Positions 7,945-19,780 of a DNA stretch of 20,978 bases are shown here, piece after piece; positions within the stretch are counted from its first letter, which is position 1; each line of letters starts with the position of its first letter. The notes beneath the pieces are model-generated. The model searched no databases. It saw nothing but the letters and a program-made list of their open reading frames with translations, and was not told the origin of the DNA. Both the position numbers and the translations under genes were made by a program. Source of the stretch: Candidatus Phoenicimicrobium oleiphilum (GTDB lineage Bacteria > Atribacterota > Phoenicimicrobiia > Phoenicimicrobiales > Phoenicimicrobiaceae); contig JBDIWJ010000035.1 in assembly GCA_039638295.1 (NCBI GenBank), positions 1-20,978 of the forward strand, read 5' to 3'.

Positions 7945-8104
7945 TTAGTTAGCATTAAGTTTTTTTATTAAGCTCATAGTCATTTTACTAATTTCATCAA
8001 TTTCATTTAGTAATTTATTAGCTTCCTTATTTTCAAAATATCCCAGTCGTAAGGCAATAATAATTTGAGTGGAAAGTTCAGCACAACCGACTTGTTATTT
8101 TCAT
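7945..8104 (-). pseudogene. Internally deleted four-helix-bundle protein gene (23S rRNA IVP / TIGR02436-like)
   Basis: RBS AAGAAGGA and ATG at 8104 give MKITS. In a shifted frame, 8088-7945 reads GCAELSTQIIIALRLGYFENKEANKLLNEIDEISKMTMSLIKKLNAN*, which resembles the family C-terminal half. Family recognised by eye, not by search. Confidence 0.8.
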
Positions 8105-10896: not shown

Positions 10897-10985
10897 GCCG
10901 AAGTGGCGAAATTGGTAGACGCACTGGACTCAAAATCCAGCGAGCCTTTAAGCTCATGTCGGTTCGACTCCGACCTTCGGCACCA
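10897..10985 (+). tRNA. tRNA-Leu (anticodon CAA)
   Basis: Acceptor stem GCCGAAG/CTTCGGC, D-loop TTGGTAGAC, anticodon arm CTGGA-CTCAAAA-TCCAG, long variable arm, GGTTCGACTCC T-arm, discriminator A and encoded CCA. Confidence 0.98.
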
Positions 10986-11478: not shown

Positions 11479-14400
11479 TTAGTTATTTGCTATTTGTTCT
11501 ACCCATACTTTTTCATTTCCTAAAATATATCTTATTTTTCTAACTAATTCATCATTAATATTTACTGAATATTTTTTATCGATAGCATGTAGTATAGTTT
11601 TTTCTTTTTCTTTAAAGTGGAGTATTATCTGACTTTTCCCGGGATAAGTACAAAATATTTCTTTTAAATTTACTAAAAGATCTGGTTTGTTATTAGATGA
11701 ATTGATTTCAAGGTGAAGTTCTTCCAAAAAATCTTGTTTACCTTCTTCCTCTTTTAATGTAGATTCTTCTTCCAAATATTTATTTAGAGGAGATATATCC
11801 TCAGCGATTAATTTCACTTTTCCTTCCGCTATATCTAAACGACCTTTAATTATTACAATTTCTTCTTTCATTATCAATTCTTTATGCTCTTCATAAACTT
11901 TGGGAAAAACTATTACTTCAACTGTACCCTCTAAATCTTCTAAAGAAATAAATACCATAAGATTTCCATTCTTAGTGCTTTTTCTTTTAAAATTATTAAT
12001 TACTCCTCCCAAAATCACTTTACTTTTATCTGGTAAATTCTTTAAACCGACAGAAGTAGAGGTTATAATCTTCTGTAATTTTTCCTGATAATTATCCAGA
12101 GGGTGATAAGAAATATATAATCCTAACATCTCTTTCTCCATAGCTAAAAGCTCACTCTGGGAAAATTCGGGTATATCTGGCATTTTTTCTCGTTGATTAA
12201 TACTTATATATTTTTTACGGGGTTCTTTAAATAAATCAAATATCGAGGTTTGACCATTCTTCTGGGCTTTTTGGTATTCTTGACCGCTCTTCATAGTATC
12301 ATCTAAAATTTCCAATAATTGAGATCTTCTTACTTCTAATGAATCAAAAGCACCACATTTTATTAAACTTTCAATAACTCTTTTATTAACTAATCTTAAA
12401 TCTACTCTTTGGCAAAAATCAAGCAAGGAAGTGAAATTAGAATTTTTTTTGCGTTCTTTGATTATACTTTTTATAGCTTTTTCTCCAACATTTTTTACTG
12501 CAGCTAATCCAAAACGAATAGCTTTTTCTCCAACTACTGTGAAATTTACTAGGCTTTGATTTATATCAGGCGGCAGGATATCAATATTCATATTTTTACA
12601 TTCCTTTATATAGAGAGCGACTTTATCATTATTGCCCATTATACTAGTAAGTAGAGAAGACATATATTCTACAGGATAATGAGTTTTTAAATAGGCTGTC
12701 TGGTAAGAAATAAAGGCATAAGAGACACTGTGAGATTTATTAAAACCATATCCGGCAAAATAAGCAATTAGGTCAAATATTTCCGTTGCAGAACTTTTCC
12801 TAATACCTTTCTTTTGGGCACCTTTTATAAAAATTTCACGTTGTTTTTCCATAACTACTTTTTGTTTTTTCCCCATAGCTTTACGTAAAATGTCTGCTTG
12901 ACCTAAGGTAAAACCGGCTAACTCGCTGGCAATCTTCATAACTTGTTCTTGATAAACGATTACTCCATAAGTTTCTTTTAATATAGATTCCAATCGGGGA
13001 TGAGGGTATCTAATCTTTACAATTCCTTTCTTTCGATTAATAAAATCTTCAATCATTCCACTACCTAAAGGTCCTGGTCTGTATAATGCTAATAGTGCAG
13101 CAATATCTTCTATGCTCTCAGGTTTTAATCTTTTAACTAAATCTCTCATTCCTTCGCTTTCTAATTGAAAAATACCAGCACAGTTTCCTTGGGAAAGCAT
13201 TCTATATACTAGCTTGTCATCTAAAGGAATCCGATCTATGTCAACTTCTTTTCCCTGAGTATGTTTTATAATTTCTAAGGTATTACTTATTACAGTTAAA
13301 GTACGTAAGCCTAAAAAATCCATTTTTAATAAACCTAGCTCTTCTAATTCCGTCATAGCATACTGGGTACATATTTCACTTTCAGTGGTATTTTGTAATG
13401 GAACATAATCAGTTAGAGGTTTCTGAGAAAGTACTATACCAGCAGCGTGAGTAGAGGCGTGTCGAGCTAAACCCTCTAATGAGGAAGCTATATCTATTAA
13501 TTTTTTTATATTTTTGTCTTTCTTCATTAAATCTTTAAGCCGGCTTTCCATATTTAAAGCTTTTTCGATGGTAATATTAGGTTCCCAGGGAATCATTTTT
13601 GCAATAGTATCTACCTGAGAATAAGGAACACCCAGCGCCCTTCCTACATCTCGAATAGCAGCTCTTGCAGCCATAGTCCCGAAAGTAATAATCTGAGCCA
13701 CCTTATCTTCTCCATACTTTTTAGAAACATATTCTATCACTTCTTCTCTCCGCTCGTAACAAAAATCAATATCAAAATCGGGCATGCTAATTCTTTCGGG
13801 ATTTAAAAACCTTTCAAATAATAGTCCATAAGTCATGGGATCCACATTAGTTATCTTTAAACAATAGGCAACCAAACTACCTGCAGCAGAACCCCGTCCA
13901 GGCCCAACCATAATATTTTTTTCTTTAGCATATCTTACAAAATCCCAAACAATTAAAAAATAAGGAACAAACTCCATTTTTTCAATAACTGAAAGCTCAT
14001 ATTCCAATCTATCTTCTAATTCTTTGGTGATAATTGGATATCTCTCTTTAAGTCCTTGGTAACAAAGTTCTTTTAAATAACTGTTTATATTATAATTTTG
14101 GGGCACACTGAATTCGGGCAGCTGAGCTTGTTTAAAATTAATTTCTAAATTACATTTTTCAGCAATACGAATAGTATTTTCTATAGCTTGAGGTATTTCT
14201 GAAAAGTTCTGATTCATTTCTTCAGGGGAGCAAAAATAAAATTTGTCTGTAGCAAATTTTAAACGCTTGGGGTCATCTAAATTGGTAGCAGTCTGGATAC
14301 AAAGCAATATTTCGTGAGCTGATGCATCTTCTTTTTTAATATAATGAATATCACTGCTTGCTACAAGAGGAATTGAAAGTTCTTGTCCTATTTTTATGAG

Positions 14401-14973
14401 ATTCTCATTAACAATCTCTTGTTCCGGAATACCATTTTTTTGTAATTCTAAATAAAAATTATCTTCTCCAAAGATATTAACAAAATCAACTGTGACTTCT
14501 TTAGCTCTATTTATATTATTTTGTAAAATATAGTAGGGAATCTCACCCTTTAAACAAGCAGATAACCCAATTAATCCTTTACTATATTCCCTTAATATTT
14601 CTTTATCAATTCTTGGTTTATAGTAAAATCCCTCCAAATAAGATAAAGTAACTAATTTCATTAAATTTTTATAACCTTCATTATTCTTGGCTAATAAGAT
14701 TAAATGATAAGGAGTTTCTTTTCTTTGGGTAGATTTATCAAATCTACTATTGGGGGCAACATACACTTCACAGCCAATTATAGGCTTTACTCCTTGCCGA
14801 ATAGCTTCTTTATAGAATTGAATCACTCCATACATAACTCCATGATCAGTAATAGCTAAAGCAGGCATTTTATATTTTTTAGCTTTTGCCACCAATTCTT
14901 TAATCCTACAGGCACCATCTAATAAGCTGTATTCAGTATGGACATGTAGGTGAACAAAGTTTGAATGCCACAC
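11479..14973 (-). CDS. dnaE: DNA polymerase III alpha subunit
   Basis: 1164 aa. PHP domain (FVHLHVHTEYSLLDGA, AITDHG), GPGRGSAAGS, catalytic PDFDIDF, KMDFLGL, GFNKSHS and OB fold. GTG start. Confidence 0.99.
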   Translation of the reverse strand: MWHSNFVHLHVHTEYSLLDGACRIKELVAKAKKYKMPALAITDHGVMYGVIQFYKEAIRQGVKPIIGCEVYVAPNSRFDKSTQRKETPYHLILLAKNNEGYKNLMKLVTLSYLEGFYYKPRIDKEILREYSKGLIGLSACLKGEIPYYILQNNINRAKEVTVDFVNIFGEDNFYLELQKNGIPEQEIVNENLIKIGQELSIPLVASSDIHYIKKEDASAHEILLCIQTATNLDDPKRLKFATDKFYFCSPEEMNQNFSEIPQAIENTIRIAEKCNLEINFKQAQLPEFSVPQNYNINSYLKELCYQGLKERYPIITKELEDRLEYELSVIEKMEFVPYFLIVWDFVRYAKEKNIMVGPGRGSAAGSLVAYCLKITNVDPMTYGLLFERFLNPERISMPDFDIDFCYERREEVIEYVSKKYGEDKVAQIITFGTMAARAAIRDVGRALGVPYSQVDTIAKMIPWEPNITIEKALNMESRLKDLMKKDKNIKKLIDIASSLEGLARHASTHAAGIVLSQKPLTDYVPLQNTTESEICTQYAMTELEELGLLKMDFLGLRTLTVISNTLEIIKHTQGKEVDIDRIPLDDKLVYRMLSQGNCAGIFQLESEGMRDLVKRLKPESIEDIAALLALYRPGPLGSGMIEDFINRKKGIVKIRYPHPRLESILKETYGVIVYQEQVMKIASELAGFTLGQADILRKAMGKKQKVVMEKQREIFIKGAQKKGIRKSSATEIFDLIAYFAGYGFNKSHSVSYAFISYQTAYLKTHYPVEYMSSLLTSIMGNNDKVALYIKECKNMNIDILPPDINQSLVNFTVVGEKAIRFGLAAVKNVGEKAIKSIIKERKKNSNFTSLLDFCQRVDLRLVNKRVIESLIKCGAFDSLEVRRSQLLEILDDTMKSGQEYQKAQKNGQTSIFDLFKEPRKKYISINQREKMPDIPEFSQSELLAMEKEMLGLYISYHPLDNYQEKLQKIITSTSVGLKNLPDKSKVILGGVINNFKRKSTKNGNLMVFISLEDLEGTVEVIVFPKVYEEHKELIMKEEIVIIKGRLDIAEGKVKLIAEDISPLNKYLEEESTLKEEEGKQDFLEELHLEINSSNNKPDLLVNLKEIFCTYPGKSQIILHFKEKEKTILHAIDKKYSVNINDELVRKIRYILGNEKVWVEQIANN

Positions 14974-15050
14974 GTAAAAACCCCCAGATTTAATTCGTAT
15001 CTCGTATCTCGTAATAGTATAGCGTAGAGCGTATAGCGTATAGGAATACA

Positions 15051-15263
15051 GTATCGAGTATCGAGTATATAGTTAAGAAAGAAACTGTCCAACTGATAAA
15101 ACAATATTGAGCGAATAATTAATAAACATCTTTAACCACTTCTATTCCTGCTTGCCAGATTCTCAAATCTTGAAAGTTTTTTATCCTTTCAGCTATTCTT
15201 CTCTTTCTTTTTTCTCCTCACTATATACTCGATACTTGATACTGGATACTCGATACTCGATAC
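15051..15263 (-). mobile_element. MITE-like cassette copy 1 carrying a four-helix-bundle 5' fragment
   Basis: Perfect 16-bp inverted repeats GTATCGAGTATATAGT (15058-15073) and ACTATATACTCGATAC (15220-15235), each extended by heptamer arrays. The interior is homologous to 17328-17520 in inverted orientation. Mobility is inferred. Confidence 0.7.
15119..15196 (-). pseudogene. Four-helix-bundle protein N-terminal fragment
   Basis: Reads (I)AERIKNFQDLRIWQAGIEVVKDVY*, matching the family F.DL.(I/V)WQ....V..(I/V)Y N-terminus. ATA stands where ATG is expected. Confidence 0.75.
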
Positions 15264-15269
15264 AGTTTT

Positions 15270-16301
15270 TTATTTAAAAAATACCTGGGCTAATTCCCAC
15301 CATTTTTTATCTACAGTTTTAAGTTTGCTAACCGCTTCTTTTAAAGGCACCCCTGTTACTTCATTCCCTTTAAGAGCAGCCATATAACCGAATTTTCCTT
15401 GGGCAATCAAATCTACCGCAGTAACTCCACACCTAAGGCCTAAAATACGATCAAAAAGTGTAGGAGAACCTCCCCTTTGAATATGGCCAATTACTGCATA
15501 GCGAGTTTCTATCCCTGTTTTTTCTTCAATCAAATCTGCTAGAAGATTACCTACCCCTCTTTTACGTAAAATCATATGTCCAAATTGATCTAATTCCTCT
15601 TTTCCGGTTTCTATGCCAGGGAGAATTACTCCTTCTGATATCACTACAGAAGCGTACTTTTTCTTTTTATATACTTCTTTTAAATGCTGGCACATTTTCT
15701 CTATATCTATTTCTCCCTCGGGAATTAAGGTCCAATCTGCCCCTGAACCAAGACCAGTAAACAGAGCTACCCAACCAGCATGTCTCCCCATTACCTCTAA
15801 AATCATTATTCTCCGATGAGAAAGACCAGTATCTTGAAGACTCTTCATAGCCTGAATTGCCCAGGTAACCGAACTATCAAATCCAAAAGTATAATCAGTA
15901 CCACTAAGATCATTATCCATAGTTTTGGGAGCTCCAACTAATTTTATATCCTCTTCTTGAAATAATCTATTAGCAACTCCCAAAGTATCTTCTCCTCCAA
16001 TTGCTAAAACTGCATCTATCTTAAAACTTTTCAGGGAATTAAGTACTTTCTTAACTCCATTGTCTACTTTGTAGGGGTTTAATCTTGAAGTACCTAAAAT
16101 AGTACCACCTTTGTCTACTATTTCTTCTACCTCATTTATGCTTAAGGGCTTCATTTCACCCATTACCAGTCCTTTCCAACCTTCCTGGATTCCATAAACT
16201 TCATAATTATAATCTTTTGCCCTATATACTGCTCCCCTAATAGTTGGATTTAATCCCGGGCAATCTCCCCCACCAGTTAAAATAGCTATTCTTTTAATCA
16301 T
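15270..16301 (-). CDS. pfkA: Phosphofructokinase, group III, probably pyrophosphate-dependent
   Basis: TGGGDCPGLN, GGTILGTSR, GGEDT, PKTMDND, EVMGRHAG and GHIQRGG motifs. Probable start MIKRIAIL at 16301, just after the fba stop. Confidence 0.93.
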   Translation of the reverse strand: MIKRIAILTGGGDCPGLNPTIRGAVYRAKDYNYEVYGIQEGWKGLVMGEMKPLSINEVEEIVDKGGTILGTSRLNPYKVDNGVKKVLNSLKSFKIDAVLAIGGEDTLGVANRLFQEEDIKLVGAPKTMDNDLSGTDYTFGFDSSVTWAIQAMKSLQDTGLSHRRIMILEVMGRHAGWVALFTGLGSGADWTLIPEGEIDIEKMCQHLKEVYKKKKYASVVISEGVILPGIETGKEELDQFGHMILRKRGVGNLLADLIEEKTGIETRYAVIGHIQRGGSPTLFDRILGLRCGVTAVDLIAQGKFGYMAALKGNEVTGVPLKEAVSKLKTVDKKWWELAQVFFK

Positions 16302-16306
16302 ATTTA

Positions 16307-17173
16307 TCACGCCTTTCCACTGCAACCAAAAACTCTCATTCTATCGCGAATAATTTCTTTGGCTGCTTCTTTTGCTGGACCTAATATTTTACGTGGATCT
16401 ATCTCTTCCGGGTTCATTTTTATTATTTCTTTAATTTTTTCGGTAAATTTCATCCGGATTCGTGTATCTATATTAATCTTACATATCCCTGCCGCAATAC
16501 CTTTTTTAACTTCTTCATCATTAACCCCCGAGGCTCCATGCAAAACTAAAGGTACTCCTGTTAATTCTCTTATTTTTTCAATTCGAGCAATATCTAATTT
16601 TGCAAAAGGTGTACGGCAACCATGAATTGTACCCACAGCAGCTGCTAGTGAGTCTATCTCGGTTAATTCAACAAATTTTGCTGCTTCCTCAGGCTTAGCC
16701 ATTGTCTCTTTTACTTTTTCCAAAGCAACTCCTGGCTCATCACTATCACCCATTTTCCCTATTTGTCCTAATTCTGCTTCTACTGGAATATCGCAAGTAT
16801 GAGCCATCTCCACAACTTTTTTAGTCATTTTAACATTATCATCAAAAGGTAATTTTGAACCATCAAACATTAAGGAAGTAAAACCTGCCCTTAAGCATTT
16901 TATGTTTTGATAATAATCTGTTCCATGGTCTAAATGCAAAGCTACTGGTATACTTGCTTTTTCAGCTTCAACTTTTACCATAGCTACAATAATATCTAAT
17001 CCTGCATATTTTATAGCACCCTGGGAAGCTTGCAAGATTACTGGAGCCCTTTCTTCTTCAGCAGTTTCTATTATCGCTTGGATAATCTCCATATTATTAG
17101 CGTTAAAAGCTCCTACTGCATACCTTTCCTTTTGAGCTTTTTTTAACATTTCCTTGGTAGTTACTAAAGCCAT
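16307..17173 (-). CDS. fba: Class II fructose-1,6-bisphosphate aldolase
   Basis: YAVGAFN, ALHLDHG, SLMFDGS, VEAELG, GTIHG, LVLHGASG, KINIDT and DPRK motifs. Probable start MALVTT at 17173 with AAGGGG RBS. Confidence 0.96.
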   Translation of the reverse strand: MALVTTKEMLKKAQKERYAVGAFNANNMEIIQAIIETAEEERAPVILQASQGAIKYAGLDIIVAMVKVEAEKASIPVALHLDHGTDYYQNIKCLRAGFTSLMFDGSKLPFDDNVKMTKKVVEMAHTCDIPVEAELGQIGKMGDSDEPGVALEKVKETMAKPEEAAKFVELTEIDSLAAAVGTIHGCRTPFAKLDIARIEKIRELTGVPLVLHGASGVNDEEVKKGIAAGICKINIDTRIRMKFTEKIKEIIKMNPEEIDPRKILGPAKEAAKEIIRDRMRVFGCSGKA

Positions 17174-17273
17174 CGTTCTTTCCCCTTTCATTCATTTATA
17201 TTATTTCTTATACTTAATTGTCTATAAATACCCTCTTCTTCTGACTCAAACTGATAGTTTTTAAATTTTATTT

Positions 17274-17302
17274 ATTATAACTTGTTTATTTTTTCATTTC
17301 AA
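17274..17302 (-). promoter_or_regulatory. Sigma70-type promoter for fba-pfk
   Basis: Minus strand reads TTGAAA-17 bp-TATAAT. Confidence 0.7.
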
Positions 17303-17311
17303 GGGAATTAT

Positions 17312-17520
17312 TCGTATCGCGTATTGTGTATCGAGTATATAGTAAAGAGAGAAGAGCAAAGAGAAAAATAACTGAAAAAATAAAAAACTTTCAAGATTTG
17401 AAAATCTGATAAAAAGGAATAGAAGTCGTTAAAGATGTTTATTAATTATTCGCTCAATATTGTTTTATAAGTTGGACAGTTTCTTTTTTAACTATATATT
17501 ACATACTCGATACTCGATAC
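17312..17520 (+). mobile_element. MITE-like cassette copy 2 carrying a four-helix-bundle 5' fragment
   Basis: Left end GTATCGAGTATATAGT (17328-17343), right end ACTATATA..ATACTCGATACTCGATAC (17491-17520). About 10 mismatches over the 127-bp core (17372-17498) against the reverse complement of copy 1, by manual alignment. Confidence 0.7.
17368..17445 (+). pseudogene. Four-helix-bundle protein N-terminal fragment with nonsense mutations
   Basis: Reads ITEKIKNFQDLKI**KGIEVVKDVY*. The TGG CAA (WQ) of copy 1 is TGA TAA here. Confidence 0.72.
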
Positions 17521-17533
17521 TATATTAATATAG

Positions 17534-17562
17534 TTGAGAATAATCTTAATTAATGATATAGT
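17534..17562 (+). promoter_or_regulatory. Probable sigma70 promoter for hflKC
   Basis: TTGAGA-17 bp-TATAGT with an extended -10 TGn. Confidence 0.55.
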
Positions 17563-17622: not shown

Positions 17623-18642
17623 ATGCCAGAATACTATGATGAAGACAAGGATAGAATTATTAATATTGCTGAAAAAATACCGAAATTAAAATTTAGCAAA
17701 AAATTATTCGGTATTATCTTGGTGTTATTAATTGCGCTCTACCTTGCCAGTGGAATTTTTGTGGTTGCTCCTGATGAACAAGGAGTAGTCAAAAGATTTG
17801 GTAAATTTAATCGTATAGTAAGTCCGGGGCTCAACTATCACTTCCCTTATCCCATAGAAACAGTTTTTACTCCAGCAGTTACTCAAGTAAGAAGGGTGGA
17901 AATAGGATTTCGCACTATTAGCCTTGGTCCACCTGCACGTTACCAAGAAATTCCAGCAGAGGCTTTGATGTTAACCGGGGATGAAAATATTGTTAGTGCA
18001 GAAGCAATTGTTCAATACAAAATAAAGGACCCCGTTGACTATCTTTTTAATATTATTTTACCAGAACAGACGGTTAAAAGTGCTGCTGAGGCTGTTTTAA
18101 GGCAAGTAATTGGAGAGAGAAAAATAGATGAAGCACTTACTGTTGGAAAATATGAAATTCAGGAGGAAACAAAGAAAGTACTTCAAACTCTCTTAGATTC
18201 CTATAAATCAGGAATCCTTGTAGTTGCGGTTCAATTACAAGATGTTAACCCACCCAAAGAGGTTCAAGACGCTTTTAAGGATGTAGCCAGCGCAAAAGAA
18301 GATAAAAGTAAATACATAAATCAAGCCCAAGGGTATAAAAACGATATAATTCCCAAGGCTCGAGGAGAGGCAGTAAAAATTACCAAAGAAGCTGAAGGCT
18401 ACAAAATTGAGAGAATAAAAAAAGCTGAAGGTGATATCGCAAAATTCAATAGTATTTTAACTGAATATAAAAAAGGTGAATATATAACTCGAGCTCGCCT
18501 TTATCTGGAAACTATGGAAGAAATTTTACCCAATATGAATAAAGTAATAGTTGATTTAAAGGAAAATCAATCCTTAATAAATCTATTACCCTTAGGCGAT
18601 GCAAATATTCTAACTGCTCCTTCTAAGGAGGTGACCAAGTGA
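17623..18642 (+). CDS. hflK: FtsH protease modulator HflK
   Basis: AAGGAGG RBS, N-terminal TM helix and SPFH domain (GVVKRFGK, PGLNYHFPYPIE, MLTGDENIV, VQDAFKDV, IPKARGEA, RLYLETME). Confidence 0.96.
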   Translation: MPEYYDEDKDRIINIAEKIPKLKFSKKLFGIILVLLIALYLASGIFVVAPDEQGVVKRFGKFNRIVSPGLNYHFPYPIETVFTPAVTQVRRVEIGFRTISLGPPARYQEIPAEALMLTGDENIVSAEAIVQYKIKDPVDYLFNIILPEQTVKSAAEAVLRQVIGERKIDEALTVGKYEIQEETKKVLQTLLDSYKSGILVVAVQLQDVNPPKEVQDAFKDVASAKEDKSKYINQAQGYKNDIIPKARGEAVKITKEAEGYKIERIKKAEGDIAKFNSILTEYKKGEYITRARLYLETMEEILPNMNKVIVDLKENQSLINLLPLGDANILTAPSKEVTK

Positions 18643-19494: not shown

Positions 19495-19780
19495 ATCTCG
19501 TATCAAGTATCGCGTATCGAGTATCGCGTTTGTTCCCCCTCACCCTCTCTCCAGAAGGGGAGAGGGAATGGAGGGGGAATAAAGGATTTATTACTTTAAT
19601 TTTATTCTACACTCTATATGGAATTCTGACTCCTAACTACTGACTCCTGAATTCTTTTTTACGAGATACGAATTAGACTCCTGGTTCCCGACTTGTATTT
19701 TCTTCACTATATACGCGATACTCGATACTAGTTATCCTATACGCTAGATGAACCTACTCTCCGCTATCTTGCTATACGCT
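19495..19780. repeat. Spacer cassette between convergent genes: left heptamer arm, GC-rich hairpin, CTCCTGA-type heptamers, right arms
   Basis: ATCTCGT-ATCAAGT-ATCGCGT-ATCGAGT-ATCGCGT at 19495-19529, TACGAGATACGAATTA at 19660-19675 and CACTATATACGCGATACTCGATAC at 19705-19728. Confidence 0.78.
19533..19579. terminator. GC-rich hairpin, REP-like and a possible bidirectional terminator
   Basis: Outer stem TTCCCCCTC/GAGGGGGAA and inner stem CCCTCTCTCC/GGGGAGAGGG, between convergent hflC and the dehydrogenase. No clear U-tract. Confidence 0.5.

Follow-up and report, generated by a model that had tools for sequence, protein, structure and literature searches.

Inverted copies of an internally deleted four-helix-bundle cassette on either side of pfk-fba in Candidatus Phoenicimicrobium oleiphilum

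Among the systems in which repeats bound short stretches of bacterial DNA, fim and hin are promoter segments that site-specific invertases turn around, spacer inversion can reportedly result when templates are switched between short inverted repeats, and intergenic heptamer repeats are known as the STRR of cyanobacteria. In the present study, we analysed a stretch of 20,978 nucleotides (the window) from Candidatus Phoenicimicrobium oleiphilum of the Atribacterota (assembly GCA_039638295.1, contig JBDIWJ010000035.1), in which two inverted copies of one short unit, named A and B here, lie on either side of the glycolytic genes pfk and fba. Among the closest described systems is the intervening sequence (IVS) of 23S rRNA. 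In Coxiella burnetii, its ends are terminal inverted repeats, its open reading frame (ORF) is preceded by heptamers and an AG-rich leader, deletions occur in the ORF, and its distribution is sporadic and laterally acquired (PMC4990558).

Judged from sequence, A and B both represent, in opposite directions, a single derivative that arose by internal deletion from a PF05635/TIGR02436 cassette of Atribacterota with heptamer arms. We consider it slightly better than an even bet (about 0.55) that they are relics of one deleted cassette which is confined to two spacers, flips there, and has been copied and handed from lineage to lineage through events at its 7-base arms (recombination or template switching), and not by genome-wide transposition. 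The parts of the two copies are as follows.

15051..15263, minus strand: copy A, the whole deleted cassette in the pfk-dnaE spacer, reading towards dnaE (repeats, BLAST, RNA fold)
15221..15263, minus strand: left arm of A, tandem degenerate 7-mers beginning 7 bases past the pfk stop (period 7, 5.6 copies)
15197-15220, minus strand: purine-rich leader of A, preceding the 25-codon fragment
15122..15196, minus strand: 25-codon 5' fragment of a four-helix-bundle gene in A, with ATA replacing ATG (match to the intact gene)
15072..15121, minus strand: tail of A, taken as the cassette's native right end, which repeats the leader and first codons in inverted, imperfect form (derivatives, fold)
15091-15064, minus strand: weak promoter-like site within the tail of A, TGGACA-16-TATACT, facing dnaE (promoter scan)
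15051..15073, minus strand: right arm of A, 7-mers complementary to the left arm (repeat search)
17314..17520, plus strand: copy B, the same deleted cassette, flanked by the two -35 boxes of the predicted, divergent fba and hflK promoters and reading towards hflK (repeats, BLAST, RNA fold)
17368..17442, plus strand: 25-codon fragment in B, ATA start, two in-frame stops (match to the intact gene)
17443..17492, plus strand: tail of B, taken as the native right end (tail comparison)

The deleted cassette and its parent

A repeat search of the window found 15050-15206 complementary to 17358-17514 at 90% over 157 nt. In BLAST, the copies align at 85% over 219 bases with a bit score of 250, against a best score of 42.8 in 20 mononucleotide shuffles of the window. 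These results bear out the inverted homologous pair around pfk and fba that had been noticed in a first-pass annotation made from the letters alone. Its 41-bp identical stretch proved exact (15096-15136 and 17428-17468), its count of about 10 mismatches in a 127-bp core comes to 11-12 in the ungapped register, and A, which it had ended at 15242, reaches 15263 with its pfk-side arm; the end of B at 17520 was kept. Each copy is bounded by complementary arrays of degenerate 7-mers, and the terminal inverted repeats already described for both are formed by these arms together with extended pairing. As RNA, A is predicted to fold into a single long hairpin (-62.4 kcal/mol, z -4.9, with 0 of 200 shuffles as good), and so is B (z -4.2). 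Both copies also carry the 25-codon fragment and break at GAT GTT TAT/TAA, as had been reported, and the two stops in the fragment of B stand at 17407-17412.

A misassembly had been named as one possible explanation in case only two copies exist. A second assembly (locus L090) holds both of them, with 5 differences from the window in 7,551 positions and none inside the copies, and contigs of several sequencing runs, which may be the window's own sources, match the flanks and the middle segment without differences. A misassembly is thus ruled out.

The fragment matches the 5' end of an intact gene in the source genome (G000; other G- and L-numbers denote the relatives' genomes and loci that were compared) at G000:C3:957-1316, which belongs to PF05635 (E 6e-41) and TIGR02436 (E 9e-39) with a weak Avd hit, and whose 7-mer arms and purine-rich leader are those of the relics. 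Intact cassettes of this subfamily are found at several loci and encode solely the four-helix-bundle protein. The sequence beyond the break had been taken for an unrelated tail, a description that has to be replaced: in G004:C103 and G025:C80 the tail comes after the last codons, the stop and the 3' untranslated region (UTR) of a gene of the same subfamily, an intact gene in G019 is followed by the first 44 letters of that UTR, and in the predicted fold the leader and first codons are paired with the tail. On these comparisons, what the deletion has brought up to codon 25 is the right end of the cassette itself. The 3' UTR contains GATGTTTTAT and the gene contains GAT GTT TAT, as in the intact gene G020:C193, so a deletion at this shared microhomology would explain the junction; it may have run via the short match GATRTTT between codons 23-25 and the 3' UTR. 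A second deletion type of the cassette, in which codon 5 is joined to codon ~103 at a 12-letter microhomology, was seen at G000:C3:31189-31300 and, at other slots, in G014, G015, G004 and G025.

Two spacers, two orientations

The pfk-dnaE spacer is called slot 1 and the fba-hflK spacer slot 2 below. Scans for the junction as an exact degenerate match found 3 loci in 185,579 GTDB genomes, 9 in JGI metagenomes and 0 in IMG/VR (no viral copies), and 12 of 12 loci are in slot 1 or slot 2. After duplicates were merged, they represent 8 lineages, the source genome included, with nine copies. A BLAST with a 76-base query spanning the junction across 86 genomes of the phylum added no loci, although its reach was limited, since it missed G007. 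Slot 1 holds the unit facing dnaE in G000, G020, G007 and L089 and reversed in L088; slot 2 holds it facing hflK in G000 and L087 and reversed in G015 and L093. All four states of slot and orientation are therefore on record. Among the loci compared, the unit is present at slot 1 in 5 of 25 distinct spacers and at slot 2 in 5 of 20 (a single lineage accounts for two of these five), shares that are inflated by metagenome loci selected through the junction, and it is absent from both slots of the same-genus G001. In the source genome, BLAST found only these two copies with the junction, as against other intergenic families with 46 copies on 28 contigs and 34 copies on 24 contigs.

The flanks of the reversed copies indicate what has turned. 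At slot 1 of L088, 48 of 52 letters in the pfk-side flank are those of the forward G020, and the flank towards dnaE corresponds to that of G028/G029, yet the core between these flanks is reversed. At slot 2 of L093, the fba-side flank matches the window and the hflK-side flank matches L087, again with a reversed core, and slot 1 of G001 holds a different relic, reversed. The switch points between kept flanks and reversed core fall inside the arms. Since the core is reversed with its outer flanks unchanged, the unit likely flips in place.

The first-pass annotation had raised the possibility of a larger inversion, with the glycolytic operon and its promoter as an invertible or composite segment that could change read-through into dnaE. 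The genes and sites concerned are these.

11479..14973, minus strand: dnaE, DNA polymerase III alpha, downstream of A
14995..15043, no strand assigned: additional 7-mer arrays that belong to other units, in the stretch from A to the dnaE start, outside the shared unit and variable among relatives (period-7 repeats)
15270..16301, minus strand: pfk, 6-phosphofructokinase (NF002872 above cut-off)
16307..17173, minus strand: fba, class II fructose-bisphosphate aldolase (TIGR01859 above cut-off)
17274..17302, minus strand: predicted fba promoter TTGAAA-17-TATAAT, intact, adjoining B from outside (11/12 match)
17534..17562, plus strand: predicted hflK promoter TTGAGA-17-TATAGT, intact, adjoining B from outside (10/12 match)
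17623..18642, plus strand: hflK, downstream of B

We judged 42 of 49 matching relatives, leaving out 7 in which the blocks were on separate contigs or single. In all 42, fba-pfk is collinear with its neighbours (37 by the dnaE link, 22 by the hflK link, 17 by both). With 0 of 42 inverted and the order of dnaE-pfk-fba-hflK constant, an operon flip is rejected for these relatives, and it is the 200-bp unit itself that flips. In these 42, the fba-pfk segment was found neither in both orientations nor at another locus, and the ORFs of the window include no invertase or transposase linked to it. A switchable glycolytic operon ahead of dnaE is without support. No strand-changing joint appeared among the pieces listed of 8 runs, all of them contigs; most break at the 41-bp repeat, and a minority flip within the population would therefore be invisible. 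One contig of an RNA library, X15 (14804-15180), spans the repeat of A in its native arrangement and has no bearing on expression. Furthermore, the pfk-dnaE spacer measures only 35-76 bases in 4 of 25 alleles, which suggests that dnaE is read from the fba promoter and that an operon flip would likely be harmful.

Origin, spread and competing explanations

The same junction and shared tail letters occur in 9 of 9 copies, which supports the earlier proposal that the unit was already defective before it reached its second site; by the evidence of their letters, all nine copies have one origin. Seven of them lie 2-9 changes from one majority state, and those of G015 and G007 lie 17-18 changes from it. 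Over 133 letters, there are 12 differences between A and B but 9 between either of them and the copy of G020. A fresh duplication inside the source genome is rejected on this count, and the source genome simply has one allele of slot 1 and one of slot 2. The one private change common to A and B is ATG to ATA, which is found in 2 of 7 long copies of the gene as well. That both lack the ATG, as had been observed, is correct, but this is no shared ancestral defect: the ATG is intact in 5 of 9 copies, among them L087, the closest counterpart of B and from a close host, so its loss came after the spread. No gene conversion is needed behind the 41-bp identity, this stretch being the majority state of all copies.

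Leader variants group by slot and not by host, and the tail differs by 1-10 of 58 letters among copies. The copies are star-like, with unit distances of 0.045-0.091 against host fourfold-site distances of 0.22-0.50 (G007 and G015 set aside); without G007, the two distances correlate at Spearman 0.30 (p 0.13, non-independent pairs). In the fba 5' UTR beside slot 2, the identity of G000 and G020 is 0.67, and L093 is closest to G000 (0.82), with 0.66-0.68 to its own coding relatives. The unit distances together with this UTR pattern suggest lateral spread between lineages.

The following course would account for these observations. The unit may have arisen at slot 1, which holds other derivatives of the subfamily in G014, G015, G028, G009 and G001 (four other derivative types) and is for this reason the likely place of origin. 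One local inverted copy, 2.1 kb away, would have created the occupant of slot 2, flips would result from crossovers or template switches inside the 7-mer arms, and allele exchange at the same slot between co-occurring Atribacterota could spread the unit. The relic is probably neutral for the host, or near to it, because it lies outside promoters and reading frames.

Several points weigh against this reading. None of 52 genomes yielded an intact gene followed by the complete tail, so the parent cassette had to be pieced together from derivatives. The recombination route is itself deduced from alleles, the nine copies all come from draft assemblies, and scans that require an exact degenerate match could miss older copies elsewhere. 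The unit tree is poorly resolved, with supports of 62-79, and unit distance does follow host distance once G007 is included (Spearman 0.65, non-independent pairs). In 40-codon windows, synonymous divergence shows no drop beside slot 1, so the genes there offer no conversion tract as a sign that alleles were exchanged laterally. Similar spacer pairs across the genome are about 2.7-fold enriched within 10 kb (50 of 2,291 against 0.82% expected), but they are mostly direct; this gives little support to local copying as a general habit. When 8 elements with such arms were compared, any further interiors that they had in common were short, with 73-78% likeness.

The proposal that the unit is MITE-like (MITEs being miniature inverted-repeat transposable elements) and moved in trans deserves the most attention among the competitors, although we regard it as unlikely. 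If some transposase or recombinase acted on the 7-mer arms, with a strong preference for nearby slots that already bear arms, it could move a non-autonomous element, in keeping with the terminal inverted arms, the internally deleted cargo gene, the patchy occurrence across genera in both orientations, a unit identity higher than that of host genes, and the intact subfamily cassettes at several loci. A MITE inserts at unrelated loci, however, and the 12 junction loci are all in two adjacent spacers, even though the arm type occurs 71 times in G000. There is no target-site duplication either, with 0-3 matching letters in the 7 of 9 copies tested by script and none by eye at the flanks of G015 and L093, the arm ends being fuzzy. 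The ORFs of the window include no recombinase, invertase or transposase gene, and the Y1 transposase, resolvase and tyrosine recombinases of G000 are on other contigs, without link to the unit.

It is a rather speculative reading that the 7-mer arms are functional recombination sites of an undescribed system, in which a dedicated enzyme, perhaps aided by the Avd-like four-helix-bundle protein, would flip arm-bounded DNA, copy it to nearby arm-bearing spacers and home it into the corresponding spacer of other genera, with the unit acting as an orientation-dependent promoter or RNA-processing switch for dnaE, hflK or fba.

Quite improbable, in our view, is an old vertical relic that flips in place, has been lost many times, and is kept by selection, either as an RNA hairpin that would be processed between pfk and dnaE at an RNase III-type site or as a promoter reading outward into dnaE or hflK. 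The strong predicted hairpin of both copies, the promoter-like TGGACA-16-TATACT and the low variation of the tail would agree with selection, and G007, as the host farthest removed, also carries the copy that diverges most. The unit is nevertheless absent from 20 of 25 distinct slot-1 and 15 of 20 slot-2 spacers and from the same-genus G001, close hosts differ (L088/G014/G015) and distant hosts share it. The -35 letters in the tail are altered in 4 of 9 copies, and the promoter scan gave no excess over shuffles (12 matches against 10.8). At slot 2, an RNA role is unlikely, the unit being upstream of both predicted promoters. The motif of the fba promoter is kept in 23 of 24 loci, the 24th being cut by a contig end, and the boundary of B with the hflK promoter is identical in empty alleles.

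We give little credence to recurrent, independent deletion at one microhomology in intact cassettes inserted separately at both spacers. Such deletions do happen in this family, since the codon 5 to codon 103 type recurs at four loci and slot 1 holds its four other derivative types, but the tail letters shared by all nine copies are absent from tails at other loci, seven copies are within few changes of one state, and neither slot has an intact tail-bearing gene. Least probable of all is a change of slot through two successive fba-pfk inversions, at the outer arms and then at the inner arms, which from the arm geometry would yield the exact mirror relation of A and B and the use of two slots, but of which no inverted intermediate exists in 42 of 42 relatives and no strand-changing joint in the pieces listed in 8 runs, and whose intermediate would likely starve the replicative polymerase if dnaE is read from the fba promoter.

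Related cassettes and comparison with described systems

Other occupants of slot 1 were noted among the relatives. At L041:2230-3765 (G004), an insertion-sequence-like ORF, judged by eye, stands downstream of pfk. At L081:80-150 (G029:C315), the 3' end of a group II intron (RF00029, E 4e-6, 37.8 bits, below the gathering score) runs into the same tail, with about 10 letters in common; this joint is probably a deletion after intron insertion. G000 gave no group II intron match.

Elsewhere in the window, the hflC-dehydrogenase spacer (19495-19750) has a mosaic make-up, in which 7-mer arms occur together with a G/C-rich hairpin. The five differences of the window from L090 and from most runs are in or near it, and in G023, G004, G009 and G014 this spacer holds short 5' fragments of the same cassette subfamily. 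A 3' remnant of another four-helix-bundle gene (E 3e-6), with different 7-mer arms, stands at 7978-8085 on the minus strand between polA and the next gene, and a tRNA gene is found at 10897-10982 on the plus strand. Across species, the subfamily reuses a few slots directly behind the stops of housekeeping genes, intact or deleted (L097/L014/L095/L082; L009/L008/L010/L011; L012/L019/L098/L096); judged by sequence likeness, the neighbours are putatively alaS, a pilC-like gene and rpsO. G000 has another inverted spacer pair, 96% alike and 44 kb apart (G000:C3:24241-24568 and 68542-68870). Its palindromic intergenic families of 46 and 34 copies are dispersed, and one Y1 transposase is present; the 46-copy family presumably resembles the REP (repetitive extragenic palindromic) elements of the RAYT (REP-associated tyrosine transposase) type.

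The unique deletion junction is a marker with which the cassette can be followed across genera, and the locus bears on how four-helix-bundle genes (the '23S rRNA IVS protein') and heptamer repeats spread. We found no literature on heptamer-armed four-helix-bundle cassettes between protein genes, in a search that was incomplete for subscription papers and supplements. The in-place flips of such a cassette and its restriction to two slots are what the present study adds.

As in fim and hin, inverted repeats flank a promoter-bearing segment here, but no invertase is nearby, the repeats are relics only 85-90% alike, and the segment is unflipped in the 42 relatives. With template switching or recombination at short inverted repeats, as reported elsewhere (PMC8604942, PMC7202029), the unit has in common that the spacer is reversed between the arms and the outer flanks are unchanged. 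Those cases reportedly concern short local repeats of yeast and E. coli, and the copying of a 200-bp unit over 2.1 kb would be an extrapolation from them. The TAACTGA heptamers of Beggiatoa are likewise tandem 7-mers in operon spacers, with no function assigned in the portions of the source used, which do not mention four-helix-bundle genes or intervening sequences (PMC4679880); the 7-mers here are the arms of a cassette. With prokaryotic MITEs, as characterised in the sections drawn on, the unit shares a short length (207-213 bp), the lack of a gene beyond its 25-codon remnant, terminal inverted repeats, AT-richness, an intergenic position and descent by internal deletion, but it has no target-site duplication and no dispersal, no partner transposase with the same ends was found, and its parent encodes no known transposase (PMC10969869).

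The resemblance to the ORF-bearing IVS of 23S rRNA (S23p/PF05635) in Coxiella burnetii and Leptospira goes further. In both, a PF05635 gene or its remnant is enclosed in inverted repeats, with heptamers, an AG-rich leader and an RNA hairpin; the ORF decays by deletion, and the distribution is sporadic, which for the IVS has been attributed to horizontal transfer into one fixed slot (PMC4990558). In contrast to the S23p IVS, the unit lies between protein genes and promoters in a window without rRNA, its arms consist wholly of 7-mers, each slot holds it in both orientations, and its hairpin comes from a predicted fold. By analogy, the unit works like a decayed S23p intervening sequence outside rRNA. 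Overall, its slot fidelity, in-place flipping and probable lateral spread show that it is closer to rRNA intervening sequences than to MITEs.

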